Of a stretch of 41,880 bases of DNA, positions 1,418-41,880 are shown piece by piece. Below the pieces are notes generated by a model. The model saw only the letters and a program-made list of their open reading frames with translations. It searched no databases and was not told the DNA's origin. The translations under genes were made by a program, and so were the position numbers. Source of the DNA: Omnitrophica bacterium GWA2_41_15 (GTDB taxonomy: Bacteria; Omnitrophota; Gorgyraeia; Gygaellales; UBA12090). The DNA is taken from the NCBI GenBank assembly GCA_919902675.1, contig CAKKRH010000030.1, positions 1-41,880 on the forward strand, read 5' to 3'. Position 1 is the first letter of the stretch. Each line of letters opens with the position of its first letter.

Positions 1418-3220
1418 ATGACTAAAAAAGCTGTTTCAGGCGGACTAAATACCAGGGTTTATTATTTATTTATTTTTATAACTTTTATCTTTTTCCTCTT
1501 GACCGGAGTTGTGGTTTTTGCCCGGACCAAGGCTATAATCAAGAATTTTATTTTTAATGAGCTGGGCTATTTTATTCAGAATGTTGACGCCAGGATTGAC
1601 CTTTTTATTGAGGCCAAAAAAGGCCGGGCCCTGGATTTTTGTTCCGACGGCATCATTAAAGACGGGCTTACCTATTACGATCCCGACGATAAAGACGTGG
1701 ATAAACTCCGTCAGCAGATTGATGATCATTTGGCTAAAAACAAGGTGGTGCTGGATGCCCAGCTTGAGGACACCCTTATCCTTAACCTTAAGGGAAAGGT
1801 TATTTTTTCCAATAATGAGCGGAATATTGGAAAGGATAAATCGCGAGAAGAATATTTCAGGCAGATCAGTCGTTATTTTAAAGATCAGGCGGTTTTAAAG
1901 AAACTCCGCCGCAATCCTACTTCTACAGTTTATGCCGGTGATGTCTATGTTTCTGAAGACCTGAATGCCCCGGCTTTGGCGGTTTCCAATATTATTACTG
2001 CCCGGGCTACCGGACTTCCTCTGGGGGTCCTGGTTAACCGCTACCGGCTGGATGTCCTGATAAAATCCATAGAGATACGCGAGGCCGCGATGGGAAATAC
2101 AGGCAAGTTTTACCTGATTAATAAAGACGGGCTTTTGCTTAACATACCAAAATTTTTTCCCTCCGGGAAAAAAGAAGATATAATTTTAAAAGAAAGGATA
2201 GATATTCCGGTGGCGATCACCATCTTGGAGGATTCGGTTAAAATGTTAGGCGTATACCGGGATTTCCGCGCCGAGCCGGTTCTGGGAGCGGCAATGTTGA
2301 TGAAAAGAAATAACTGGTTGATTATCGCGGAAAAAGATACCCGGGAGGCATTCGCCCCTCTTTACAGCTTAACCTGGCAGATGATTTTTATCGGCTTGGC
2401 CGCTTTAGTGGTGATTGTCGGGGTATTCTTATTTATTATCCGCCTGCATAAAAAAGTAGATGAAAAAAACCGGGAATTAGAGGATTCCCGCAATAAGATG
2501 TTTCAAAGCGGAAAGCTGGCCGCGGTGGGGCAATTGGCCAGCAGTGTGGCCCATGAGATTAACAATCCGCTTACCGGTGTTTTAAACAATGTCCAGTTGA
2601 TTAAGATGGAGATGGAGATGGGGGCGGATTTTAAGGTTACGGATTTCAAAGAGCAGTTGGATGTGATTGAGGAGTCGGCCTCCCGGTGCGTGAAAATAGC
2701 CCGCTCTTTATTGGATTTCTCCCGTGCCGCCAAGGGGACATTCCAGCCTTTTTCCCTGAATGAGGCGGTAGAGAAGACCATAACCTTAATCGGCCACGAA
2801 CTAAAATTGCGTGATGTCTCGGTAAAAAAAGAGCTGGGGGAAAATCTTCCCCGGATTCAAGGCGATACCCAGCTCATCCAGCAGGTCATCTTTGATATTG
2901 TTAATAACGCCAGATACGCCATAGAAAAAAACCCCAAAAAAGAAGCCGGGCTGATAATCTTAAAAACCCGCTATGATATGGTTAAGGATCTGGTTTTGCT
3001 TTCCATCTCTGACAACGGCACGGGAATCTCTCCGGAAAATCTGGATAAACTTTTCACCCCGTTTTTTACCACTAAGCCGGTTGGTGAGGGTACCGGATTG
3101 GGCCTGTCTTTTATCCAGGACATTGTGAAGAGGCATAACGGTAAAGTTTCAGTGGAAAGCGAATTAGGCAAAGGAACGACTTTTCATATTTCTTTTCCGG
3201 TGATAAAGGAGAATAAATGA
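1418..3220 (+). CDS. Membrane sensor histidine kinase (TM - Cache-like periplasmic domain - TM - HisKA - HATPase)
   Basis: Two hydrophobic segments; Cache-like motifs (IGKDKSREEYF, YRDFRAEPVLGA, WLIIAEKD); AHEINNPL; DNGTGI, FTPFFTTK, GTGLGL. Confidence 0.92.
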   Translation: MTKKAVSGGLNTRVYYLFIFITFIFFLLTGVVVFARTKAIIKNFIFNELGYFIQNVDARIDLFIEAKKGRALDFCSDGIIKDGLTYYDPDDKDVDKLRQQIDDHLAKNKVVLDAQLEDTLILNLKGKVIFSNNERNIGKDKSREEYFRQISRYFKDQAVLKKLRRNPTSTVYAGDVYVSEDLNAPALAVSNIITARATGLPLGVLVNRYRLDVLIKSIEIREAAMGNTGKFYLINKDGLLLNIPKFFPSGKKEDIILKERIDIPVAITILEDSVKMLGVYRDFRAEPVLGAAMLMKRNNWLIIAEKDTREAFAPLYSLTWQMIFIGLAALVVIVGVFLFIIRLHKKVDEKNRELEDSRNKMFQSGKLAAVGQLASSVAHEINNPLTGVLNNVQLIKMEMEMGADFKVTDFKEQLDVIEESASRCVKIARSLLDFSRAAKGTFQPFSLNEAVEKTITLIGHELKLRDVSVKKELGENLPRIQGDTQLIQQVIFDIVNNARYAIEKNPKKEAGLIILKTRYDMVKDLVLLSISDNGTGISPENLDKLFTPFFTTKPVGEGTGLGLSFIQDIVKRHNGKVSVESELGKGTTFHISFPVIKENK

Positions 3221-3957
3221 CAGAAAAGACTAAATTGAAAGTGTTGGTAGTTGACGATGAAAAGGTGATTCGGGACTTCTTGAGCCGTTTTTTAAGCCTG
3301 CAATTGGCCCAGGTGAAGACCGCCGCCGACGGAGAAACGGCCATAGAGCTGGCCAAAACCGAGGAATTTGATTTGGTGTTTTTGGATATCCGGATGCCCA
3401 AGACCAACGGCCTGGAAACATTCGGGGAACTGAAGAAGATAACTCCGGATATAGCCTGCGTGTTTATGACCGGGTATGCCTCAGCCGAAGAGGATTTGAT
3501 TAACAAGATTAAATATGAAGGGATTATGTGCGTGCGCAAGCCCTTTGAGAATTTAAATAAGATAAAAGAGATAGTGGAGAATGTGCTTAAGGAGGCCAGC
3601 CTTGTGCCGGATAAAAAAGAGAGTGATCCTAAGGAGAAAAGGGCCTATCGGCGCTTTGATATGGTTTTAGAAGTAGACTACCGGATAAAAGGTAAGACAG
3701 GCGCTTTTAGCCATTGCCTAAGCAATAATATTTCCCTGGGAGGAATAAGGCTTTTAGCGCCTGATGAGTTTTCTCTGGGGACAAAATTGGATTTGGTTAT
3801 CAAGAGCCCGGACAATAAAAATACCTGCGCGGTTCCCGGCGAGGTGGTCTGGGTGAGAAAATCCGAGAGCAAGGCCGGCCATTACGAGGCGGGAATAAAA
3901 TTCAGCGAAATAAATATTAATCAGTTGTCCGGGCTGATGATGTCAATAACTGAATAA
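3217..3957 (+). CDS. Response regulator receiver fused to a PilZ domain
   Basis: VLVVDDE, FLDIRMP, MTGY, RKPF; C-terminal KRAYRR (RxxxR) and NISLGG (D/NxSxxG), GEVVWVR, AGIKF. ATGA-type overlap with the upstream kinase. Confidence 0.88.
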   Translation: MTEKTKLKVLVVDDEKVIRDFLSRFLSLQLAQVKTAADGETAIELAKTEEFDLVFLDIRMPKTNGLETFGELKKITPDIACVFMTGYASAEEDLINKIKYEGIMCVRKPFENLNKIKEIVENVLKEASLVPDKKESDPKEKRAYRRFDMVLEVDYRIKGKTGAFSHCLSNNISLGGIRLLAPDEFSLGTKLDLVIKSPDNKNTCAVPGEVVWVRKSESKAGHYEAGIKFSEININQLSGLMMSITE

Positions 3958-4087
3958 ACACTAAATTCTAAACTCTAAATCCTAAACAAACCCAAAAGCT
4001 AAAATCCTAAATCCAAAACACATGTTTTGAGTTTTGTATTTATAGTTTTGAGTTTGTTTAGAGTTTAGAATTTCGGGTTTAGAGTTT
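3955..4087. repeat. Family A palindromic heptamer element, copy 1 (133 bp)
   Basis: AAACACT AAATTCT AAACTCT AAATCCT AAACAAACCCAAA ... AAAACA-CA-TGTTTT ... TTTGAGTTTGTTTAG AGTTT AGAATTT CGGGTTT AGAGTTT. Starts at the TAA stop codon. Confidence 0.92.
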
Positions 4088-4115
4088 GTATTAGGGTTTC
4101 ATATGGAGACGCGAT

Positions 4116-4859
4116 ATGGCTGATACGAAAATCAAGGTTTTGGTAGTTGACGATGAAAAGATTATCCGGGATTTTTTTGCCCGGCTTTTATCTTTGCAGG
4201 GATTAGAGGTTGTTGAGGCCGAAGACGGCTATAAGGCCTCAGAACTTGCCAAGGCAGGTAAGTTTGACCTTTATTTTATTGATGTGCGCATGCCCGGATT
4301 GGACGGATTGGAAACCTTCCGCAAGGTAAGGCAGGTTCATCCTGAGGCGCTAGTTGTGATGATGACCGGTTACGCCTTGGATAATATTTTAGAGCAGGCC
4401 CAGAAGGAAGGGGCATCCGGCTCCATCCGCAAACCCTTTGCTATAGGTGAGATAAAAGGCATCGTGGAGAAGGCCTCCCGGGAAAGAAACAAGGGGGCTT
4501 CCAATATTTTAGTCATTGATGATGATCAAGCGGTGCTTAATTTCTTCGGTAATTTTTTAAAGGCCAAGGACCAGAAATACAGCCTGATAAATAATGCCCA
4601 AGGCGCTTTAGAACTTATTCAAAGAGAGAAATTTGATTTGGTCTTCTTGGATTTGGTGCTTAAGAAGGATGATGGTTTAGAGCTCTATAAAAAGATTAAG
4701 GAAGCCATGCCCCAGGCGGAGCTGGTGATAATTACCGGATATCACGATAAAGCTCGAGAAATTGAAGGCAGGCCCGATATCAGCGGTTTTCTTTATAAAC
4801 CCTTTGAGATTGAGGGGATAATCAAATATATTGAAAAAATAAAAAATGACCGAAGTTGA
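4116..4859 (+). CDS. Tandem receiver-domain protein (REC-REC)
   Basis: Two REC motif sets: VLVVDDE/FIDVRMP/MMTGY/RKPF and ILVIDDD/FLDLVL/IITGY/YKPF. GGAG SD upstream. Confidence 0.9.
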   Translation: MADTKIKVLVVDDEKIIRDFFARLLSLQGLEVVEAEDGYKASELAKAGKFDLYFIDVRMPGLDGLETFRKVRQVHPEALVVMMTGYALDNILEQAQKEGASGSIRKPFAIGEIKGIVEKASRERNKGASNILVIDDDQAVLNFFGNFLKAKDQKYSLINNAQGALELIQREKFDLVFLDLVLKKDDGLELYKKIKEAMPQAELVIITGYHDKAREIEGRPDISGFLYKPFEIEGIIKYIEKIKNDRS

Positions 4860-6393
4860 CAGCCTTAAAGAGGAAAACCAGCGCCTGCGCGACGAGCTCA
4901 ACGACCGGATTTTTGAGCTGTCCATACTTTATGATATCTCTAACAGCATCAGCTATACCTTAAATTATGAGGATTTTATGAAGATTATGGCTGATTCCCT
5001 GAATAGGATTATTGATTACGACCTCTGCAGTTCCTTGCTTATACTCGACGGAGAAAAGGCCAGGATGATAATCCGCGCGGCCCATCCCGTAAAGAGGGAT
5101 ATCTTTGAGGAAGTTAAGAATAATGTGATCGCTTCTTTAAATTCGCTTCGGCCAAGAGCTATTTCCGGTGAGGAGATTGAGTTTGAGGTCAGGGGAGAGA
5201 TTCTGGATGATAAGAGAAGCGAAGGCGAACGGATAGTTTCTTCTTTTGACGTGCCTTTGTTTGTGCGTCAGGAGGCGGTGGGGATATTAAATGTGGCCGC
5301 GGTCAGGGACATCGCCTATTCGGATGAGGAGATAAAACTGCTTTATACCCTGGCCTCCCAGGCCTCCGCGGCTATTGAAAGGTTGCAGGCGGTATTATCC
5401 GCGGAAAAGAGCAAGATGAAGGTGATGGTGGAGAGGATGTCTGAGGGGGTGGCGATGTTTGACGAAAAAGATGAGCTGGTGATTGTCAATTCCGCCTTTA
5501 ATGAGATGACCGGAGGCGACTTAAGCCTGTTGGGTGAGCTGGATGAGATAAAGAAGCGCCGCAAACAGCCGAAGGTTCTGGATATTCATTTGGAAAAACC
5601 GTTTCCGCGGGTAATTAACAGCGAATCAGCCTGTATTGAGGACGATAATGGCCGGTATCTGGGGATAGTAATGCTCTTGAGGGATGTAAGCAAGGAGCGG
5701 GAGATTGAACAGATGAAGTCGGATTTTGTTTCGCTGGTTTCCCACGAACTGCGCACGCCCCTGGTAGCCATAAAGGGAGCGGCGGATAATCTCTTAGACG
5801 GCCTGGCGGGTGAGTTAAACGATATTCAGAAGGATTGTCTGGTTCTTTCCAAACGTAACATTGACCGCTTAAACCGGTTGATTTCCGACCTTTTGGATAT
5901 ATCCCGGATTGAAGCCGGAAAGATTCAACTTAACAAACAGCCGGCGGATGCCGCTTCTATAGTTAAGGACGTGTTGGGTTTATTTCAGGCAAGCGCGAAA
6001 GAGAAAAACATCGCTTTGGAGTCATTACTGCCTGAGGAGCTTCCCTTAGTTACGATTGATTCGGATAAGATTAATCAGGTGCTTACCAATTTAGTGGGTA
6101 ATGCCTTGAAGTTTACTCCCGCCCAGGGTAAAATAATGATCAAGGTTTTTCGCGCGGAGAACTTCTTGCGGGTAGAGGTGAGGGATACCGGAGTAGGTAT
6201 CCCTAAGCAGGATCTGGAGAAGGTTTTTGACAAATTTTATCAGGTGGACCGCAATAAGAGTTTTACCTCGGTTAAAGGTACCGGCTTGGGGCTTCCTATA
6301 TCTAAAGGCATTGTGGAAAGGCACGGAGGCAAAATCTGGGCCGAGAGCGAGGCGGGAGAGGGAAGTAAATTCATTTTCACCCTTCCTGTTTAA
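4846..6393 (+). CDS. Cytoplasmic GAF-PAS sensor histidine kinase
   Basis: GAF motifs (VPLFVRQEAVGIL, LLYTLASQASAAIE), PAS (MSEGVAMFD...LLRDVS), H-box SHELRTPL, NLVGNALKFT, DTGVGI, GTGLGL. Confidence 0.92.
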   Translation: MTEVDSLKEENQRLRDELNDRIFELSILYDISNSISYTLNYEDFMKIMADSLNRIIDYDLCSSLLILDGEKARMIIRAAHPVKRDIFEEVKNNVIASLNSLRPRAISGEEIEFEVRGEILDDKRSEGERIVSSFDVPLFVRQEAVGILNVAAVRDIAYSDEEIKLLYTLASQASAAIERLQAVLSAEKSKMKVMVERMSEGVAMFDEKDELVIVNSAFNEMTGGDLSLLGELDEIKKRRKQPKVLDIHLEKPFPRVINSESACIEDDNGRYLGIVMLLRDVSKEREIEQMKSDFVSLVSHELRTPLVAIKGAADNLLDGLAGELNDIQKDCLVLSKRNIDRLNRLISDLLDISRIEAGKIQLNKQPADAASIVKDVLGLFQASAKEKNIALESLLPEELPLVTIDSDKINQVLTNLVGNALKFTPAQGKIMIKVFRAENFLRVEVRDTGVGIPKQDLEKVFDKFYQVDRNKSFTSVKGTGLGLPISKGIVERHGGKIWAESEAGEGSKFIFTLPV

Positions 6394-6487
6394 ACTCTAA
6401 ACTCTAAACCCGAAACTCTAAACAAACTCAAATATTTAAACCTAAAATCCAAAACAAAATAAACATAGAATTTTGTGTTTTGGGTTT
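6391..6487. repeat. Family A element, copy 2 (full left arm, truncated right arm)
   Basis: T AAACTCT AAACTCT AAACCCG AAACTCT AAACAAACTCAAA ... AAAACA-N19-TGTTTTGGGTTT. Starts at the TAA stop codon. Confidence 0.85.
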
Positions 6488-6511
6488 ACTTTTAATTTTA
6501 TAGGTGCTGCT

Positions 6512-8164: not shown

Positions 8165-8346
8165 TAAACCCTAAATCCAAAATCCTAAACTCTAAACAAA
8201 CTCAAAATGATAAATTCAAAACTCAAATATAATGTTTTGGGTTTGGAAAATTTTTATTTTGGATTTGTTTAGGATTTATGGTTTAGTGTTTAGAGCTTAT
8301 CTTTTATGTTCAGTATTTAAAGTTTTAAATTCAAATTATGAAGAAA
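8165..8346. repeat. Family A element, copy 3, plus 3' tail; direct repeat of 8731-8913
   Basis: Palindromic heptamer element 8165-8299 followed by TCTTTTATGTTCAGTATTT...AAATTATGAAGAAA, shared with the next copy. Confidence 0.92.
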
Positions 8347-8727
8347 GAAGCGCGCGGGTTTACCCTAATTGAGGTATTGGTTACTACCGCGGTTTTATCT
8401 TTAGGTATAGTGCTTATCTACCGGGCATTTTTTACCCTGCTGGATTCCTTTGGTTATTACAGCAATTATTTGAGGGTAGCTGCTTTTGCCGATGAAAAAC
8501 TCTGGCAGGCCCAGGACGCCTTAAGTTGTTTCGGCCCTGATGCCGGGGCAGGGTCCTCGGGCAGGCTGAATATCCAGAATAAGGATTTTAACTGGAGGCT
8601 TTCGGTTAGTCCGATTGAAGCGGAAAGCCTATACAGGATAGATTTGGCAGTAAGCTGGCGCCAAGGCCCCAGGACAAGAGAGCTTTCTAGAAACGGTTAC
8701 GCCTTGTATATCAAGAAAGAATCCTAA
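8338..8727 (+). CDS. Minor pseudopilin, GspI/PilV-like
   Basis: G|FTLIEVLV prepilin motif, 129 aa, FNWRL and LYRIDLAVSW segments typical of GspI-like proteins. Confidence 0.8.
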   Translation: MKKEARGFTLIEVLVTTAVLSLGIVLIYRAFFTLLDSFGYYSNYLRVAAFADEKLWQAQDALSCFGPDAGAGSSGRLNIQNKDFNWRLSVSPIEAESLYRIDLAVSWRQGPRTRELSRNGYALYIKKES

Positions 8728-8730
8728 AAA

Positions 8731-8913
8731 TAAACCCGAAACCCGAAACCCGAAACTCTAAACAAACTCAAAATGATAAACTCAAAACTCAAAATAAAAT
8801 GTTTTAGGTTTGGAAAATTTTTATTTTGGATTTGTTTAGGATTTATGGTTTAGTGTTTAGAGTTTATCTTTTATGTTCAGTATTTAGAGTTTTAAATTTA
8901 AATTATGAAGAAA
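8731..8913. repeat. Family A element, copy 4, plus 3' tail; direct repeat of 8165-8346
   Basis: T AAACCCG AAACCCG AAACCCG AAACTCT AAACAAACTCAAAATGATAAA ... AAATTATGAAGAAA. About 12 differences from copy 3 over about 182 bp. Confidence 0.92.
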
Positions 8914-9480
8914 ACTGCTCCCGCGTTCACCCTCATTGAGCTGTGTTTAGTAAGCCTAATAGCTTCAGTGATCGGCCTGGCGGTGTATTTTACTTTTAGT
9001 AATGGGATGAGAATCTGGCAGAAGGCAAATCAGAAAGTTGTTGAGGAGGATTTAAGCATATTTTTTGACCGATTTGCATCAGATGTAAGAAGCTGCCTGA
9101 AATTTTCCGGCTTGGGTTTTTTAGGGACCAAGGAGAGACTTGAGATTGCTTCTTTAGTGGTGAGCCCTTATTTGAGAAATAAGACTATAGGCCGGGTGGC
9201 TTACTTTTATGAACCGAAGAGTAAAGCCTTATTCAGGGAGGAGAATGACCTCAGCCGGATATTCGAAGGCAAACAAGGAATAGCGAAAGGGATTTTAGAA
9301 AATTTAAATTCTTTGAAGTTCGGGTATTACTTTTATGATAAAGAGAAAAAAGAATATGTCTGGCTTGAGGATGCTACTCTTGAGGGATTGCCGCTGGCGG
9401 TGAGAATAGAATTTGAGCTTGACACTCAGGGTTCAGCCGGCAGGTTTGCCAGGACGGTGAGTATTCCTATCGGCGGATAG
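8905..9480 (+). CDS. Minor pseudopilin, GspJ/PilW-like
   Basis: A|FTLIEL prepilin motif; C-terminal LKFGYY...W...LPLAVRIEFEL typical of GspJ. Confidence 0.8.
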   Translation: MKKTAPAFTLIELCLVSLIASVIGLAVYFTFSNGMRIWQKANQKVVEEDLSIFFDRFASDVRSCLKFSGLGFLGTKERLEIASLVVSPYLRNKTIGRVAYFYEPKSKALFREENDLSRIFEGKQGIAKGILENLNSLKFGYYFYDKEKKEYVWLEDATLEGLPLAVRIEFELDTQGSAGRFARTVSIPIGG

Positions 9481-9482
9481 TT

Positions 9483-9519
9483 TAGTTGACGGTTGACAGA
9501 TGACAGTTCACAGAAAAAA
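9483..9519 (+). repeat. Family B heptamer array (RGTTSAC)
   Basis: T AGTTGAC GGTTGAC AGATGAC AGTTCAC AGAAAAAA. Confidence 0.8.
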
Positions 9520-9575
9520 CATTCTTCCATTACGTGTTTTTGTATTAATTGTTGACTATTTTATATTTTGCGCTT

Positions 9576-10589: not shown

Positions 10590-10591
10590 TT

Positions 10592-10622
10592 TAGTTCACG
10601 GTTCACAGTTAACAGTTCATAG
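10592..10622 (+). repeat. Family B heptamer array
   Basis: T AGTTCAC GGTTCAC AGTTAAC AGTTCAT AG, preceded by the same GGATAGTT (stop codon context) as the 9483 copy. Confidence 0.8.
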
Positions 10623-13402: not shown

Positions 13403-13405
13403 TTC

Positions 13406-13429
13406 TAGTTCACAGTTGGCAGTTCACAG
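13406..13429 (+). repeat. Family B heptamer array
   Basis: T AGTTCAC AGTTGGC AGTTCAC AG. Confidence 0.75.
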
Positions 13430-13463
13430 AGATAGACCGTATCTTTTTTTTAAGGCAAGGCTT

Positions 13464-14314: not shown

Positions 14315-14453
14315 TAAATCCTAAATCCGAAACCATAAACCCTAAACAAACCCAAATGTCAAAACTTAAAACCCAAAACAAAAAATAAGAAATAAACCTT
14401 TGTGTTTTGAGTTTATAGTTTCGGATTTGTTTAGAATTTAGGGTTTAGGGTTT
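14315..14453. repeat. Family A element, copy 5
   Basis: T AAATCCT AAATCCG AAACCAT AAACCCT AAACAAACCCAAA ... AAAACA-N22-TGTTTT ... TTCGGATTTGTTTAG AATTT AGGGTTT AGGGTTT. Confidence 0.9.
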
Positions 14454-14464
14454 GAATTATTAAA

Positions 14465-14890
14465 ATGGCTAAGAAAATAGTCGCGCAAATTAAACTGCAT
14501 GTTCCCGCGGGGCAGGCTAATCCGGCTCCTCCGGTTGGCCCGGCATTAGGCCAGCACGGCGTGAATATAATGCAGTTCTGTAAACAATTCAACGACCAGA
14601 CTAAGGGCAGAGAAGGCCTGATCCTTCCGGCGGTAATCAGCGTATACGAGGATAAAACATTTACTTTCATAATCAAAAGTCCGCCTAGCTCGGTCCTGCT
14701 TAAAAGGGCGGCAAATATCGCCAAGGCTTCAGGCCAGGCGGGAAAAGAAAAGATTGGGACTGTTACCCGTAAGCAGGTGGAAGAAATAGTAAATTTAAAA
14801 TTAAAAGACTTGAATTGCAGCGATATAAAACAGGCGTTCAAGGTAATCGCGGGCACGGCCAGAAGCATGGGCATCGCGGTTGAGGGATAA
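14465..14890 (+). CDS. rplK: 50S ribosomal protein L11
   Basis: [29 protein letters not shown]. Confidence 0.99.
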
Positions 14891-16164: not shown

Positions 16165-16545
16165 ATGGCTGTTAAAGATGATGTAATCAAGTCAATTGAA
16201 GGAATGAATGTGCTGGAGCTTGCTGATTTAGTCAAAGAGCTCCAGGATAAATTTGGGGTTTCAGGCCAGATGGCGCAAGCGGCTGTTGGCGCGCCCGGCG
16301 GCACAGCGGCCCCTGCCGCGGCTGTTGAAGAAAAGAGCGCTTTTTCCGTGGTGCTCACCTCATCCGGAGCGAATAAAATCTCGGTTATTAAAGAAGTGCG
16401 CACTATCACTAACCTGGGACTTAAAGAGGCCAAGGATTTAGTTGACGGTGCCCCTAAAACAGTTAAGGACGGACTCCCCAAGGCGGAAGCCGAAGAAATG
16501 AAGAAAAAGCTTGAGGCCGCTGGAGCGACGGTAGAGTTAAAATAG
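16165..16545 (+). CDS. rplL: 50S ribosomal protein L7/L12
   Basis: [34 protein letters not shown]; AAGGAGG SD. Confidence 0.99.
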
Positions 16546-30502: not shown

Positions 30503-30510
30503 TTAAAAAT

Positions 30511-30798
30511 ATGATGACAAATACTAATTCGTATGATATAATTAAAACTTTGTTACGCACAGAGAAATCAACTCAGTTAGAGCCAGCGAGAAAATATTTA
30601 TTTCTCGTCGATAAAAAAGCGAATAAGGTTCAAATAAAAAAAGCGGTTGAAGAAATTTATAAGGTGAAGGTTTCTTCGGTAAACACAAAGATATCTCCCG
30701 GGAAGCTGCGGGTGGTGCGCCGCGAGGCCGGTTATGAACCGGATAAAAAGACAGCCCTGGTTACCTTAAAAGAAGGCAATAAAATAGAAACTACGTAA
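30511..30798 (+). CDS. rplW: 50S ribosomal protein L23
   Basis: TEKS, ANKVQIKKAVEEIYKVKVSSVNT, KKTALVTLKEG. Confidence 0.96.
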   Translation: MMTNTNSYDIIKTLLRTEKSTQLEPARKYLFLVDKKANKVQIKKAVEEIYKVKVSSVNTKISPGKLRVVRREAGYEPDKKTALVTLKEGNKIETT

Positions 30799-30837: not shown

Positions 30838-30986
30838 AAACACTAAATCCTAAACCATAAACTCTAAACAAACTCAAAATGTCGAAAACACAAAACACAA
30901 AAACAGAAAAAAGTAATATAAATATTTCGCGTTTTGAGTTTATGATTTTGAGTTTGTTTAGGGTTTAGAATTTAGAGTTTGAGTTT
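30838..30986. repeat. Family A element, copy 6
   Basis: AAACACT AAATCCT AAACCAT AAACTCT AAACAAACTCAAA ... AAAACA-N24-CGTTTT ... TTTGAGTTTGTTTAG GGTTT AGAATTT AGAGTTT. Confidence 0.9.
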
Positions 30987-31016: not shown

Positions 31017-31850
31017 ATGGGTATAAAAAAACATAAGCCGACAACACCGAGTTTAAGGTGGACGCATACATCGGATTTCCAAGAGTTAACCGCTCAGAAG
31101 CCGCATAAGCCGTTATTGAGACCGCTGAAGAAAAGCGGAGGAAGAAATGTCTACGGCAGGATAACTGTTCGCCATCACGGCGGCGGCCACAAGAGGATGT
31201 ATCGCTTGATTGATTTTAAGCGCGACCGGCTTGATGAGTTTGCCACGGTTTTAACTATTGAGTATGATCCTAACCGTTCAGGCAGAATAATGTTAATTGA
31301 ATATCCGGATCACCAAAAAAGGTATTGTATCGCTCCGTTAGAAACAAAGGTTGGGGATAAGGTCATAAGTTCCTATAAGCCTGATATAGAAATAAAGCCG
31401 GGCAATTGCCTTTCTTTAAGGCATATTCCTTTAGGGGTTCCTATCCATAATCTTGAACTTGCCAAAGGAAAAGGCGGCCAGATAGTCAGGAGCGCGGGAA
31501 ACCTGGCCAATATTACGGCAAAAGAAGGCGATATGGCCCAGGTGAGGCTTCCCTCCGGAGAGGTAAGGTTTATTAATTTAGACTGCCGGGCTACTGTCGG
31601 GCAGGTTTCTAATATAGATCATGAGTCTTTAGTCATAGGTAAGGCAGGCAGAAGCCGCTGGCTGGGAATACGGCCTACTGTTAGGGGTTTGGCAATGAAT
31701 CCGGTTGACCATCCGCATGGCGGCGGTGAAGGTAAATCCGGCCAAGGAAATCCTCATCCGGTTACTCCCTGGGGCAAACCAACAAAAGGTTTCAAAACCC
31801 GCAATAAGAACAAATATTCAAATAAATTCATCGCCAAAAAAAGAAAATAG
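31017..31850 (+). CDS. rplB: 50S ribosomal protein L2
   Basis: [30 protein letters not shown]. Confidence 0.99.
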
Positions 31851-31936: not shown

Positions 31937-32224
31937 ATGCCGAGATCATTAAAAAAGGGTCCATATATAGACCTAAAGTTATTAAAAAAGGTAGAAAAAA
32001 CAAGGTCCAGCGGTTCACGTCTGCCGATTAAGACTTGGTCCAGGCGTTCTACCATAAGTCCGGATTTTGTGGGTTTAACTATTGCCGTGCATGATGGAAG
32101 AAGGCACATTCCGGTATTTATCGTGGAGAATATGGTGGGGCATAAATTAGGAGAGTTTGCTCCCAGCAGAATTTTCAGGAAACATGGCGGCGTAAAGGCC
32201 AAGAAGGCCGCGGAAAAAACATAA
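31937..32224 (+). CDS. rpsS: 30S ribosomal protein S19
   Basis: [27 protein letters not shown]. Confidence 0.99.
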
Positions 32225-32225
32225 A

Positions 32226-32561
32226 ATGTTAGTAAAAGCAAGCGCTAAATTTATAAGGATATCACCCAGCCGTCTTCGAGAGGTAATGGATTGCGTGCGG
32301 GGAAAGAGCGTGATAGAGGCCGAAGGAATTTTGCTTAATATTGGTAAGCGCGCCAAGGGATATATTCAAAAGGTTTTAAAATCAGCGGCGGCTAACGCCA
32401 AGGTCAAGGGTTTTTCTCCGGAACAGTTATATATCTCTAAAATTAACGCTGACGCCGGTCCGATGTGGAAGAGATTTAAGGCAGCGGCTTTTGGCCGGGC
32501 ATCAAAGATACTCAAACGCACTAGCCATATTAATATAGAACTGGATCTTAAAAATAAATAA
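32226..32561 (+). CDS. rplV: 50S ribosomal protein L22
   Basis: RISP, SAAANA, GRASKILKRTSHI. Confidence 0.97.
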   Translation: MLVKASAKFIRISPSRLREVMDCVRGKSVIEAEGILLNIGKRAKGYIQKVLKSAAANAKVKGFSPEQLYISKINADAGPMWKRFKAAAFGRASKILKRTSHINIELDLKNK

Positions 32562-32573
32562 GATAATGGGCTT

Positions 32574-32706
32574 AAACTCTAAACCCGAAATCCTAAACTC
32601 TAAACAAACTCAAAACCATAAACACAAAACTCAAAACATGTGTTTTGGATTTAGGATTTTAGCTTTTGGGTTTGTTTAGGATTTAGAGTTTAGGATTTAG
32701 GGTTTA
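32574..32706. repeat. Family A element, copy 7 (133 bp; inverted copy of 3955-4087)
   Basis: Matches the reverse complement of 3955-4087 at 128/133 positions with no gaps (manual alignment). Confidence 0.93.
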
Positions 32707-32755
32707 ATTAACAGAGTTTGCTTTAAATAATGTAGTTTACGGTAAGTGAGGGCAC

Positions 32756-33466
32756 ATGGGACATAAAGTAAGTCCGTTATTATTAAGAATAGGTTATATT
32801 GAAAATTGGCGCAGTAATTGGTTTGCCAAGAAACGGGATTATCCTAAATTTATCCAGCAGGATTATGAGATCCGTAAGCTTATAAAGAAGCGTTTTAAGC
32901 AGGCATCTGTTTCCAAGATTATAATAGAGCGGCTTTCAGATAAGCTTAAGATAAAAATACATTCCGCGCGGCCCGGATTAATTATCGGCAGGCATGGACA
33001 GGATATTGAAAGGCTGCGCCAGGATATATTGGCTTTGATTAAGCAGGAAATAACCATTGATATAGTTGAAGTTAAAAATCCCGCTATTGACGCTCAACTG
33101 GTTTCTGAGAATGTCGCTCTCCAGCTTGAGAAAAGAATCGCGTTTCGCCGGGCGATGAAGAGGTCGATTGAGCAGGCCCTGGGAGCGGGAGCAAAGGGTA
33201 TTAAGATTTCGGCTTCAGGACGGCTCGGAGGAGCCGAGATTGCCAGAACCGAGGGTTATCGGCAGGGTAAATTGCCGCTATCCACTCTAAGGGCGGAGAT
33301 TGACTATGGATTTAGCGAGTCGCTTACAACTTACGGGCTTATCGGAGTTAAAGTTTGGATATACAAAGGAGAGGTGTTTAATCCCTCCAAAGTTAAGGCG
33401 ATTATTCCTAAAACAGAAGAATTAAAACGAGATACCGAGGTGGTTAAAAATGCCGTTAATGCCTAA
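32756..33466 (+). CDS. rpsC: 30S ribosomal protein S3
   Basis: MGHKVSP, ARPGLIIG, GRLGGAEIAR, YGLIGVKVWIY. Confidence 0.99.
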   Translation: MGHKVSPLLLRIGYIENWRSNWFAKKRDYPKFIQQDYEIRKLIKKRFKQASVSKIIIERLSDKLKIKIHSARPGLIIGRHGQDIERLRQDILALIKQEITIDIVEVKNPAIDAQLVSENVALQLEKRIAFRRAMKRSIEQALGAGAKGIKISASGRLGGAEIARTEGYRQGKLPLSTLRAEIDYGFSESLTTYGLIGVKVWIYKGEVFNPSKVKAIIPKTEELKRDTEVVKNAVNA

Positions 33467-35862: not shown

Positions 35863-35942
35863 TTGAGTTCATTGAGTTTGTCGAGTGCATTGAGTTTATT
35901 GAGTTGAATCAAAATAACCCGATAAACTCAAGTAACTCAATA
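35863..35942. repeat. Family C 9-mer palindrome
   Basis: TTGAGTTCA TTGAGTTTG TCGAGTGCA TTGAGTTTA TTGAGTT GAATCAAAAT AACCCGATA AACTCAAGT AACTCAATA. Confidence 0.85.
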
Positions 35943-36360: not shown

Positions 36361-36470
36361 TGTTTGAGTTAATTGAGTCTATTGCGTTATCGAGTTAAAT
36401 TCAAGAATAACTCAACAAACTCAACAAACTCAACAAACTCAACAAACTCAACAAACTCAACAAACTCAAA
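36361..36470. repeat. Family C 9-mer palindrome with expanded right arm, (AACTCAACA)x6 + partial
   Basis: Left arm TTGAGTTAA TTGAGTCTA TTGCGTTA TCGAGTTA; perfect tandem 36409-36462 plus AACTCAA to 36469. Confidence 0.92.
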
Positions 36471-38369: not shown

Positions 38370-38466
38370 AGTTAAATCCAAAAAAACAAACTCAACAAAC
38401 TCAACAAACTCAACAAACTCAACAAACTCAACAAACTCAATAAACTCAATAAACTCAATAACTCTA
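38354..38466. repeat. Family C element with expanded right arm, (AACTCAACA)x5 (AACTCAATA)x3
   Basis: Left arm AGTTATAG AGTTATAG AGTTAAATCC overlaps the last rplO codons; tandem array 38389-38460. Confidence 0.92.
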
Positions 38467-38467
38467 A

Positions 38468-39808
38468 ATGCTGGGCGCTTTTAAGAATATATTTAAGATT
38501 CAGGATTTAAAGCACAAGGTTATAATTACCTTGGCCTTAATAGCGGTTTACCGCGTAGGCGGCTTTATTCCTGTTCCCGGAATTGATTCTCAGGCCTTAG
38601 CCGAGTTCTTTGACAGAATTGCCAAAAGCCAGGGTGGGTCAATCTTAGGGATCATGAATATGTTTTCCGGAGGTTCTCTGGAAAAATTGACTATCTTTGC
38701 CCTGGGGATAATGCCTTATATCTCTAGTTCAATAATAATCCAGCTCTTAACCGCGGTTATTCCGGCTTTGGAAAAAATTTCTAAAGAAGGAAGAGCCGGC
38801 CACCAAAAGATAAATCAGTATACCCGTTATGCCACGGTGGGCCTGGCCCTAATTCAGTCATATTTTATCGCCTTATGGCTGGAGCATCCGGGGAGACTTT
38901 TAGAGGGTTTAAGTATTGTGACTGACCCGGGATTAGGTTTTAGATTCATTACCGTGATTACCCTGACCACCGGTACTATTTTTATTATGTGGTTAGGTGA
39001 GCAGGTCCAGGAAAGAGGTATCGGAAACGGCATTTCTTTGATTATTACCGCTGGGATTATTTCGAGTATCCCGGCCGCTGTTCAGCAGCTAATTATGTAT
39101 GTTTCACCTAAAACTCGCCAGCTTCATCCGGCGACTCTGGTGGTTATGGCGGCCTTGCTGGTATTCGTAGTTTTGGCGGTTATCTTTGTTACTCAGGGCC
39201 AGCGCAAGATACCGGTGCAATACGCCAGACGGGTGGTGGGAAGAAAGGTCTTTGGCGGACAATCAACCTACATACCTCTAAAGGTGGATACCTCAGGGGT
39301 AATCGCGATTATCTTTGCCCAATCTATCATTATGTTTCCGGCAACTCTGGCCTCTTTTATTCCCAATCCGGCATTCCAGAGAATGTCTAATTTCCTTATG
39401 CGCGGGCATATAGTCTATACCGCAATGTACGCTCTTTTGATAATTTTCTTTTGCTATTTTTACACGGCTATTGTTTTTAATCCCAAAGACATTTCGGATA
39501 ACTTGAAAAAATACGGCGGTTTTATCCCCGGGATCAGGCCGGGTTCTCCCACTACGGAGTTTCTGGATTTTGTGATGACCAGGATTACTTTGGCCGGCGC
39601 GATATTTATCGCGGTTATTGCTATTTTGCCGGATTTCGTAATGGCCACCCTGAAAGTTCCTTATTTAGTCGCTTCATTCTTCGGCGGAACAGGAATTCTT
39701 ATTGTTGTCGGAGTAATGCTGGACACCCTTAAACAGATCGAATCTCAGCTTTTGATGCGTAACTACGAAGGTTTTATTAAGAGCGGCCGTATCCATGGTA
39801 GACGTTAG
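38468..39808 (+). CDS. secY: Preprotein translocase SecY
   Basis: IFALGIMPYISSSIIIQL, WLGEQ...GIGNGISL, GFIPGIRPG, GGTGILIVVGV; multiple TMs. Confidence 0.99.
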   Translation: MLGAFKNIFKIQDLKHKVIITLALIAVYRVGGFIPVPGIDSQALAEFFDRIAKSQGGSILGIMNMFSGGSLEKLTIFALGIMPYISSSIIIQLLTAVIPALEKISKEGRAGHQKINQYTRYATVGLALIQSYFIALWLEHPGRLLEGLSIVTDPGLGFRFITVITLTTGTIFIMWLGEQVQERGIGNGISLIITAGIISSIPAAVQQLIMYVSPKTRQLHPATLVVMAALLVFVVLAVIFVTQGQRKIPVQYARRVVGRKVFGGQSTYIPLKVDTSGVIAIIFAQSIIMFPATLASFIPNPAFQRMSNFLMRGHIVYTAMYALLIIFFCYFYTAIVFNPKDISDNLKKYGGFIPGIRPGSPTTEFLDFVMTRITLAGAIFIAVIAILPDFVMATLKVPYLVASFFGGTGILIVVGVMLDTLKQIESQLLMRNYEGFIKSGRIHGRR

Positions 39809-39940
39809 TGCGCTGTTACATAAAATTTTTAATAACAGCGCACAGAGCAATTGAGCAATAGAAAATAGAACAATAGACAAACAAAAGCTCAATTGCGGTC
39901 TAATGCTCTATTGTTCAAAAACTAATTTAACGGTGCGCTA
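39806..39940. mobile_element. MITE-like element with TA-bounded terminal IRs and internal 8-mer palindrome
   Basis: TAGTGCGCTGTTA (39806-39818) / TAACGGTGCGCTA (39928-39940); internal perfect stem 39808-39818/39833-39843; RGARCAAT octamers and their inverse; second copy at 41826. Confidence 0.7.
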
Positions 39941-40593: not shown

Positions 40594-40620
40594 GGGCCTG
40601 ATAAAAAGCTGTAGGCAATA

Positions 40621-40657
40621 TTTTTTCCGTGAACTGTCAACTGCCAACTGTGAACTA
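40621..40657 (-). repeat. Family B heptamer array, inverted, abutting the map start
   Basis: Reverse complement T AGTTCAC AGTTGGC AGTTGAC AGTTCAC GGAAAAAA; same layout as 9483-9519. Confidence 0.82.
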
Positions 40658-40659
40658 AA

Positions 40660-41825: not shown

Positions 41826-41880
41826 TTAGTGCGCTGTTACATAAAATTTTTAATAACAGCGCGAGAGAGCAATTGAGCAA
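41826..41880. mobile_element. Second copy of the secY-adk MITE-like element, cut by the window edge
   Basis: First 37 nt identical to 39805-39841, then AGAGCAATTGAGCAA also shared. Confidence 0.75.

Follow-up and report, generated by a model that had tools for sequence, protein, structure and literature searches.

Two copies of a 133-nt imperfect palindrome lie in opposite orientation on the 41,880-nt stretch of Omnitrophota DNA analyzed here (the window), and in our judgment they are probably two young, transposition-like copy-and-paste insertions of an already degenerate, gene-less miniature of a small mobile cassette. As far as its sequence allows a judgment, the 133-nt element is most likely the gene-less form of a PF05635 (23S-rRNA-intervening-sequence protein) cassette, because relatives carry the same arms around a PF05635 gene in unrelated contexts. 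The anatomy of the element, the repeat family to which it belongs, its placement, its lineage-specific presence, and its link to the PF05635 cassette are all established by the comparisons described below.

The window is the entire contig C30 of genome bin G000, which comprises 1.74 Mb in 58 contigs and is 80% complete. Two genomes of the same genus, G001 and G002 (the congeners), have genes 87-96% identical to those of G000. Copy A (3955-4087, forward strand) consists of two inverted arrays, each of about ten seven-base words, and occupies most of the 158-nt gap between an upstream gene for a response regulator with a PilZ domain (REC-PilZ, 3217-3957, forward strand) and a downstream gene for a response regulator with two receiver domains (double-REC, 4116-4859, forward strand), the two genes being flanked by histidine kinases. 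REC-PilZ has the first TAA of copy A as its stop codon, and the last codons and stop of this gene differ from those of the congeners because the element starts there. Copy B (32574-32706, reverse strand) is the same element in inverted orientation within the S10 operon, in a 194-nt gap between rplV (ribosomal protein L22, 32226-32561, forward strand) upstream and rpsC (ribosomal protein S3, 32756-33466, forward strand) downstream. These are the surroundings that an earlier note, made from the sequence of the window, had described: one copy among signalling genes and the other between rplV and rpsC. The only Rfam matches in the window are two tRNAs.

A MAFFT alignment of 3925-4117 (forward strand) with 32544-32736 (reverse strand) reproduced the match reported in that note, with 3955-4087 and the reverse-complemented 32574-32706 aligning ungapped over 133 nt and differing by five substitutions. 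These fall at 3960, 3967, 4038, 4044, and 4069 (32701, 32694, 32623, 32617, and 32592 in copy B), which corresponds to 96.2% identity or a divergence of 5/133 = 3.8%. The longest identical run covers 70 nt, from 3968 to 4037 (32624-32693 in copy B), and the pair is the longest inverted repeat in the window (133 nt, 96%, with 28486 nt between the arms). The flanks of the two copies were unrelated on both sides in this alignment, and neither copy has a consistent target-site duplication, both as previously observed. A BLASTN search of the element against the whole genome, which had been suggested as a check, gave the A/B match an E-value of 5.7e-58. Terminal inverted repeats that form one long stem are present in both copies (self-reverse-complement identity 0.74-0.78), and the element ends carry heptamer repeats, the arms being about ten phased 7-nt words. 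When folded as single-stranded DNA, each copy yields one long imperfect hairpin, at -28.3 kcal/mol (z -7.05) for copy A and -30.9 kcal/mol (z -7.79) for copy B. The two copies are more alike than the two arms within either of them, with an identity of 0.962 between copies versus a self-reverse-complement identity of 0.776 (A) or 0.742 (B); the asymmetric details were therefore copied as one unit, which bears out the earlier claim of whole-element copying in opposite orientation. Polarising the five substitutions with three sister-genome copies gave mixed signals.

Copies A and B belong to a family of approximately 130-nt imperfect palindromes built of 7-nt words, here called family A, for which two rounds of nhmmer found 50 loci in G000, of which 39 reach a length of 110 nt or more. 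The 741 pairs that can be drawn from these 39 copies (the 11 shorter loci were left out) have a median identity of 0.74 and a 99th percentile of 0.869, and the A/B pair ranks third. An identity no higher than that of arbitrary family members, which would have spoken against recent copying, was thus not what we found. The only comparably close set is a second young group, 92.5-96% identical, made up of the copies at 8166-8297 and 8732-8865 (both reverse strand) and a copy on another contig (C9:96847-96980). The remaining members in the window are a partial copy of 98 nt at 6393-6490, a copy between nusG and rplK at 14317-14453 (forward strand), and a copy in the gap before rplB at 30839-30985 (forward strand). 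The window makes up 2.4% of the genome yet contains 7 of the 50 loci (binomial p = 2e-4).

Co-directional ORFs lie on both sides of 37 of the 39 full-length copies; one further copy lies between divergent ORFs and one has no adjoining ORF call. The copies begin a median of 11 nt past a stop codon and end a median of 25 nt ahead of the next start, and their orientation relative to transcription is 20:17. In several copies, A among them, a TAA word of the element itself is the stop codon of the preceding gene. Small size, terminal inverted repeats, many copies, and presence or absence between relatives are features shared with MITEs (miniature inverted-repeat transposable elements). No target-site duplication is common to A, B, or the group formed by 8166, 8732, and the C9 copy, and no conserved 4-5-nt target motif was found beside family-A copies. 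A phage or viral vector for the element was considered and rejected: 50,697 phage records gave no match, and no viral contig matched the two-core pattern.

As the earlier note had pointed out, the pair would lose its meaning if one copy were a misassembly. An artefact of this kind, with one copy being a chimeric join or a collapsed repeat, is conceivable in a metagenome bin of 58 contigs, given a repeat of about the length of a read. We compared the region 32000-33300 with Logan contigs from four runs of four metagenome studies; among sequencing runs, none of RNA was found to contain the stretch. In each of the four runs, copy B was entered from both flanks by contigs with 0 differences. In run X1, a contig on the rplV side covers 32000-32653 and so reaches into the element with 0 differences, and a 70-nt contig (32624-32693) coincides exactly with the stretch in which A and B are identical; on the other side, a contig from inside the element to rpsC covers 32670-33300, also with 0 differences. 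A second contig type over 32574-32653 has three other letters, including C>T at 32617 and 32623, which are the alleles of copy A, and it runs on into different flanking sequence; none of the four runs lacked it. Samples of several studies thus contain both copies with their respective alleles. Given that five fixed differences separate A from B, and that contigs with B-specific alleles join both B flanks while A-allele contigs stand separate in 4/4 runs, misassembly is unlikely, and we give an artefact next to no credence. No empty-site contig joining the B flanks without the element was present in the four runs, where the contigs drop rare variants and leave minor alleles invisible.

The suggestion that the pair might mediate inversion of the 28 kb between the copies holds in theory only. 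The 70-nt perfect block, the only A/B stretch long enough for homologous recombination, would allow it, and such an inversion would split the S10 operon between rplV and rpsC. However, no inversion was seen, and G001 is colinear across both copy sites (a contig break in G001 at window position 14777 is unrelated to either copy). Because k-mer contigs collapse on the shared 70-nt block, leaving the halves of the element unphased, a rare inverted form would be invisible in the contigs. Two "opposite strands" joints in run X2, each represented by one contig, are what a palindrome yields by itself.

We then compared the copy sites with those of the congeners. At site A, G001 and G002 have an unrelated spacer (82 and 71 nt, respectively) with a GC-rich hairpin. 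The rplV-rpsC spacer had been singled out for comparison in sister genomes; in G001 it contains no family copy but an unrelated 72 nt. We would like to note that the absence at site B rests on one congener and 40 distant genomes, because in G002 the rplV-rpsC spacer is precisely the place of an NN gap. Across those 40 other Omnitrophota genomes, rplV and rpsC are separated by a median of 4 nt, and a gap of 100 nt or more occurs in only one. None of the window's seven family-A loci has a clear family copy at the corresponding G001 site (one gave a weak 15-bit match), and all five of the sister-genome copies examined occupy sites where G000 has none. For the copy at 14317-14453, the nusG stop abuts the rplK start in both congeners. 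This is the only clean empty site, other sister spacers being replaced rather than interrupted; the inserted block is 175 nt and hence larger than the palindrome, and the site is compatible with a TAA/TA repeat, but the sequence is AT-rich there. At the site corresponding to 30839-30985, the congeners have shorter palindromes of other words.

In the four flanking genes, G000 and G001 differ at 56 of 287 four-fold sites (19.5%), and the A/B divergence of 3.8% is about one fifth of this; the copying therefore postdates the split from the congeners. The earlier proposal of recent copying, by transposition or gene conversion, is in this respect upheld, with the pair closer than the family background, absent at these sites in the congeners as described above, and at roughly one fifth of the four-fold divergence. 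"Recent" is to be read as after that split and not as ongoing: the copying is not brand new, because both copies are present with their own alleles in four studies.

The link to PF05635 comes from other genomes of the same order. In one of these, G015, two half-matches to the element lie 335 nt apart and are family-A arms around a 119-aa PF05635 ORF (E = 3.6e-13). This cassette fills the gap between two co-directional genes, and its arms can be aligned with A and B from end to end. Whole-cassette matches were found in at least 6 of 201 same-order genomes (G015, G111, G180, G168, G016, and G162), a lower bound since no more than three candidates were scored per genome. The cassette ORFs of all six genomes are PF05635 and 61-68% identical, and the six cassettes lie in six unrelated contexts, with flank similarity in 0 of 15 locus pairs. 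In metagenomes, 560 stretches encode the PF05635 subfamily of the cassette. Among the best 80 of these 560, 71 had enough flank, and family-A arms were present on both sides of the gene in 37, on one side in 23, and on neither in 11, which leaves at least one arm at 60/71 loci; the best arm among the best 80 is 89% identical to A over 65 nt. G015 also has a gene-less copy, the right arm of which is 94% and the left arm 84% identical to its gene-bearing cassette.

G000 itself has seven PF05635 genes, all flanked by inverted arrays, each with a 7-nt word of its own. None of those in the assembled 80% of the genome belongs to the cognate subfamily, and a gene-bearing parent in G000 was rejected, the best PF05635 gene being just 42% identical. 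The gene-bearing form encodes PF05635 and no known transposase, and so lacks the transposase-encoding parent with the same ends that is expected of a MITE. A and B lie between protein-coding genes and not in a 23S or 16S rRNA helix. We know of no enzymatic activity of PF05635. The family resembles the Avd protein of diversity-generating retroelements, according to the accessible part of one report (PMC10053308). A reverse transcriptase was considered as a G000 function and rejected, none being found in the 80% complete genome. In the literature, supplements aside, we found no paper on PF05635 cassettes between protein-coding genes or on their gene-less copies.

Taken together, these observations suggest a course of events in which the miniature form would retain the two arms alone, leaving an imperfect palindrome of approximately 130 nt, and in which copies would land, in either orientation, in short stop-start gaps within operons, where the TAA-rich end words could furnish a stop codon. 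Operon read-through is probably kept, because the hairpin has no T-run after it. A and B would have arisen in the G000 lineage after its split from the congeners, and would trace back to a single source that had already degenerated. Either copy could have given rise to the other, or the two could descend from a third one, which may sit in the unassembled 20% of the genome. The copying itself would be a transposition-like insertion, presumably driven in trans by a PF05635 protein or by some other host or mobile function. The source was imperfect (arms 74-78% self-complementary), so recognition of a perfect hairpin is not required; this fits recombination equally well.

Transposition-like insertion is favoured because the sites are lineage-specific, the homology stops at the palindrome ends, and gene-bearing relatives occur in unrelated contexts. 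Against it stand the lack of a target-site duplication and of a conserved target motif, and the classical DDE footprint is missing. Gene conversion would instead have older, diverged family copies at both sites, one of which was overwritten by non-reciprocal recombination between inverted repeats. The exact end of identity at the palindrome ends would also be expected if homology ended there, and stray family-like words (GAGTTTG beside B and TAGGGTTT beside A) could be remnants of older copies. Conversion-like homogenisation of spacers moreover appears to operate nearby, at tandem pilin-like paralogues (8338-8727 and 8905-9480) that are each preceded by a family-A copy in G000 and by the same GC-hairpin element in G001. 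Nevertheless, the congeners have no family copy at either site, and conversion therefore needs two earlier insertions as well as the conversion event. Typical family members, about 74% identical with short perfect blocks, are poor recombination substrates. The A/B differences are also spread out, with three in the 50-nt part that follows the 70-nt block on its right versus approximately 13 expected for an old copy, and no short tract inside an old copy is visible. We thus regard gene conversion as rather unlikely; the evidence leans toward insertion, without settling the matter.

A different route to insertion would be an IS200/RAYT-type tyrosine (Y1) transposase that mobilises the element in the manner of REP/REPIN sequences, with the PF05635 gene as a passenger. 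Y1 enzymes act on single-stranded DNA hairpins and leave no target duplication. The absent target duplication at A and B fits such enzymes, and G000 has six genes with a Y1_Tnp domain (PF01797). None of these six genes is flanked by family A, however, and GGGACA-type hairpins precede them; nor does a conserved 4-5-nt target motif adjoin the family copies, and in six unrelated contexts the arms accompany the PF05635 ORF. Mobilisation by a Y1 enzyme therefore seems improbable to us. We are still less inclined to see in the two copies a double recruitment of a selected regulatory or processing RNA hairpin (such as an attenuator, a stabiliser of mRNA, or a nuclease site), with the similarity reflecting function. 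In its favour, the copies belong to operon transcripts, their folds far surpass those of shuffled sequence, and two of the five A/B differences form a compensatory pair, in which positions 3967 and 4069 are T:A in A and C:G in B (rough chance probability approximately 0.025). This pair is suggestive only, and weak as evidence for RNA function because arm-to-arm co-evolution within copies was rejected: the complementarity of an arm to its own partner is 0.724 versus 0.753 to the arms of other copies (permutation p = 1). Selection at the RNA level through G:U pairs was likewise rejected, the sense RNA being the more stable strand in just 12 of 37 copies, and the 20:17 split in orientation is random. 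Further, neither element matched Rfam, no intrinsic terminator (GC-rich stem with a T-run) was found on the sense strand at either element, and the congeners lack the element at both sites, the median rplV-rpsC gap of 4 nt in the 40 other Omnitrophota pointing the same way. An RNA function as the explanation of the pair is accordingly very improbable.

Excision from the transcript by RNase III is what defines rRNA intervening sequences (IVSs). No RNase III domain was found in G000 with PF14622 or TIGR02191, and with PF00636 none was found in 31/31 same-order genomes, 19 of them at least 90% complete. With the domain not found in these genomes, IVS-type excision by RNase III cannot be assumed for family A. 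Across the phylum, RNase III is present in 93 of 151 genomes sampled. The idea that loss of RNase III lets hairpins accumulate was rejected in a comparison of 12-kb ribosomal-protein regions that surround rpsC, taken from 20 genomes in which TIGR02191 has a match and from 20 in which it has none; there, palindromes (at least 45 bits, spanning at most 300 nt) occurred in 6/20 RNase III-positive versus 1/20 negative regions. The genomes were hand-picked for an rpsC far from contig ends; G324, G302, and G267 (near a contig end) and G332 (whose congener has the gene) were left out. Two other detectors, ungapped extension and unbranched minimum-free-energy hairpins, were discarded after failing a positive control.

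Tentatively, and with more doubt than confidence, we also put forward a broader reading, in which the PF05635 (Avd-like, four-helix-bundle) cassette with heptamer arms could be an autonomous element of an undescribed mechanism. The long hairpin or cruciform formed by the arms would be recognised by the protein of the same cassette, which would bring about copy-and-paste into stop-start gaps, and A and B would be a trans-mobilised, degenerate, gene-less copy. This would take place in an order apparently without RNase III, and the rRNA IVSs would then be the rRNA-resident branch of a much larger class.

A young duplicate within a repeat family is by itself an ordinary event; this is known repeat behaviour and no new kind of system. 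What makes the pair interesting is its connection to the PF05635 cassette and the fact that one copy sits inside the S10 operon. The pair provides a dated, clean case of word-built hairpins being copied as whole units and not merely grown by slippage, and it illustrates that such an element can settle in a highly conserved operon, between rplV and rpsC, without visible cost. With this, and with a PF05635 gene between the same arms in many uncultured bacteria, the old question of the nature and movement of rRNA intervening sequences becomes directly addressable. Repeats of this kind have a practical side as well: in Omnitrophota genomes they fragment short-read assemblies and make annotation based on spacers confusing.

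Several known systems resemble family A in part. The ERIC/IRU sequences of enterobacteria and the Correia elements of Neisseria are imperfect palindromes of approximately 100-155 bp that lie in transcribed intergenic gaps in either orientation, are co-transcribed with neighbouring genes, and vary in presence between close relatives; insertion of a Correia element duplicates a TA, and RNase III cleaves these elements. Family A is similar to both in being an imperfect palindrome in transcribed gaps, in either orientation, with variable presence between relatives. It has no sequence relation to them and differs in consisting of arrays of 7-nt words and in having a gene-bearing parent form, and, unlike for Correia elements, no duplication was seen and no RNase III was found in the host. 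The Rickettsia palindromic elements are approximately 100-150 bp long, tolerate insertion at or in genes, and are mostly translated in frame. Insertion at a gene is likewise tolerated in family A, the end word of copy A supplying the REC-PilZ stop codon, but A and B are intergenic whereas the Rickettsia elements mostly lie in frame within genes.

As far as the accessible portions of two reports describe them, REPs are 20-40 bp long with GTAG/CGTC tags, and RAYT genes are flanked by their own REPs (PMC3116915, PMC3733652). Similar to REP, BIME, and REPIN sequences, family A consists of short palindromic repeats between co-directional genes that are thought to be non-autonomous and mobilised in trans. 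In contrast to REPs so described, its element is 133 nt long, AT-rich, and word-built, without a GTAG/CGTC tag, and, in contrast to the RAYT arrangement, the six Y1 genes of G000 are not flanked by the family. The available text of Rehm et al. 2015 (PMC4692102) presents convergent heptamer arrays in Xanthomonas (GGGAATC) and the STRR heptamers of cyanobacteria as repeats of the simple-sequence or G-quadruplex type, "not associated with mobile elements". These too are arrays of 7-nt units, often in inverted pairs and mostly between aligned ORFs, whose length and presence vary between related genomes, according to the same text. Unlike the arrays as that text portrays them, family A is copied whole, including its non-repetitive asymmetric parts, and the same arms flank a gene.

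The closest comparison in structure is with the rRNA IVSs that carry an S23p/PF05635 ORF, such as those of Coxiella burnetii, Leptospira, and Xanthomonas, for which the accessible part of one report (PMC4990558) is our main source. There, the 23S IVS of Coxiella has a stem of 28 bp formed by terminal inverted repeats, together with GACAGAT heptamers repeated in tandem a variable number of times before the S23p ORF, and IVS mobility is described as long suspected and not explained. Family A differs in lying between protein-coding genes of operons instead of in rRNA helices, in having arms of approximately 60 nt of 7-nt words versus the 28-bp stem reported there, in its dozens of gene-less copies per genome, and in belonging to a lineage in which an RNase III domain was not found. 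A second report, likewise as far as its accessible text goes, describes rRNA insertions with and without ORFs at the same sites (PMC11270868), and gene-less short forms beside gene-bearing ones are also what we see in family A. Both systems, to the extent that these sources cover the IVSs, further share a long stem of terminal inverted repeats around a small PF05635 gene, tandem heptamers of variable number at the element end, and a patchy distribution of the kind expected for a selfish element.

The spacer between rplV and rpsC, which in G000 (the Omnitrophica bacterium GWA2_41_15 bin) holds a copy of family A, the imperfect palindromes of about 130 nt, is different in each family-level relative (L004, L007 and L009). 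It measures about 8-25 nt in two family-level relatives, consists of an array of CCTTTCA words in the relative G004, and is occupied by a GC-rich palindrome of 150 nt in G008. From these sequences, the spacer looks like a hot spot into which unrelated hairpins insert. In the same-genus genome G002, an NN join (G002:C111; L003 1499-1500) falls exactly within this spacer, and the rplV stop and rpsC start are missing; the assembly was interrupted at this point, in the manner expected of a repeat.

Relatives of G000 carry a REP-like hairpin rich in GC, GGGGCRGGTTC(N0-1)GAACCYGCCCC. There are 34 copies in G001 (G001:C18:25789-25811, 30510-30531, 31103-31124 and elsewhere; L014 and L025), 8 in G002 and one in G004; G000 and G006 lack it. 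G001 has this hairpin in the same spacers where G000 has a family-A copy: the gap between the REC-PilZ and double-REC genes, and the sites of the family-A copies at 8166 and 8732. Each of the latter two copies precedes one of two tandem pilin-like paralogues (N-terminus MKK..FTLIE), and the duplicated block there is 210 nt long, reaching into the gene start (8165-8373 and 8731-8940). The related copy on contig C9 (96845-97011) has 166 nt in common with the pilin-associated blocks, comprising the palindrome and a 32-nt tail, and thus the copied unit of this subfamily is asymmetric.

Other repeat families also occupy the window. A second repeat of about 130 nt (39805-39931 and 41826-41862), distinct from family A and carrying the hairpin GCGCTGTTA...TAACAGCGC, gives about 15 matches in G000; the congeners G001 and G002 contain many. 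Several spacers are filled by heptamer arrays of GTTCACA/GTTGACA (9481-9523, 10590-10617, 13404-13431, 16437-16464 and 40617-40659); these words also form inverted arms around a gene for a protein of 23S-rRNA intervening sequences (PF05635; G000:C13:93216-93533). That gene has one tRNA gene on each side. Within the ribosomal-protein cluster, a 9-nt unit, AACTCAACA, forms tandem arrays in two spacers (36409-36469 and 38380-38467), with an inverted partner array (35863-35905) at a distance of 0.5-2.5 kb.

G000 gave no match to the RNase III domain profiles PF14622 and TIGR02191, and a search of 31 genomes from the same order with PF00636 likewise found none; 19 of these genomes have a completeness of 90% or more. 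In a phylum-wide sample of 151 genomes, by contrast, TIGR02191 matched in 93. By these profile searches, rnc appears to have been lost across the whole lineage, G000 and its same-order relatives included.

Six genes of G000 encode Y1-transposase domains (225-329 aa; G000:C12:51713, C1:136084, C20:42463, C31:2361, C49:10603 and C49:3363), and upstream of every one lie a TTGACA box and a hairpin of GGGACA type. Judged from sequence, these genes and their GGGACA-type hairpins may constitute a distinct REP/RAYT-like system.
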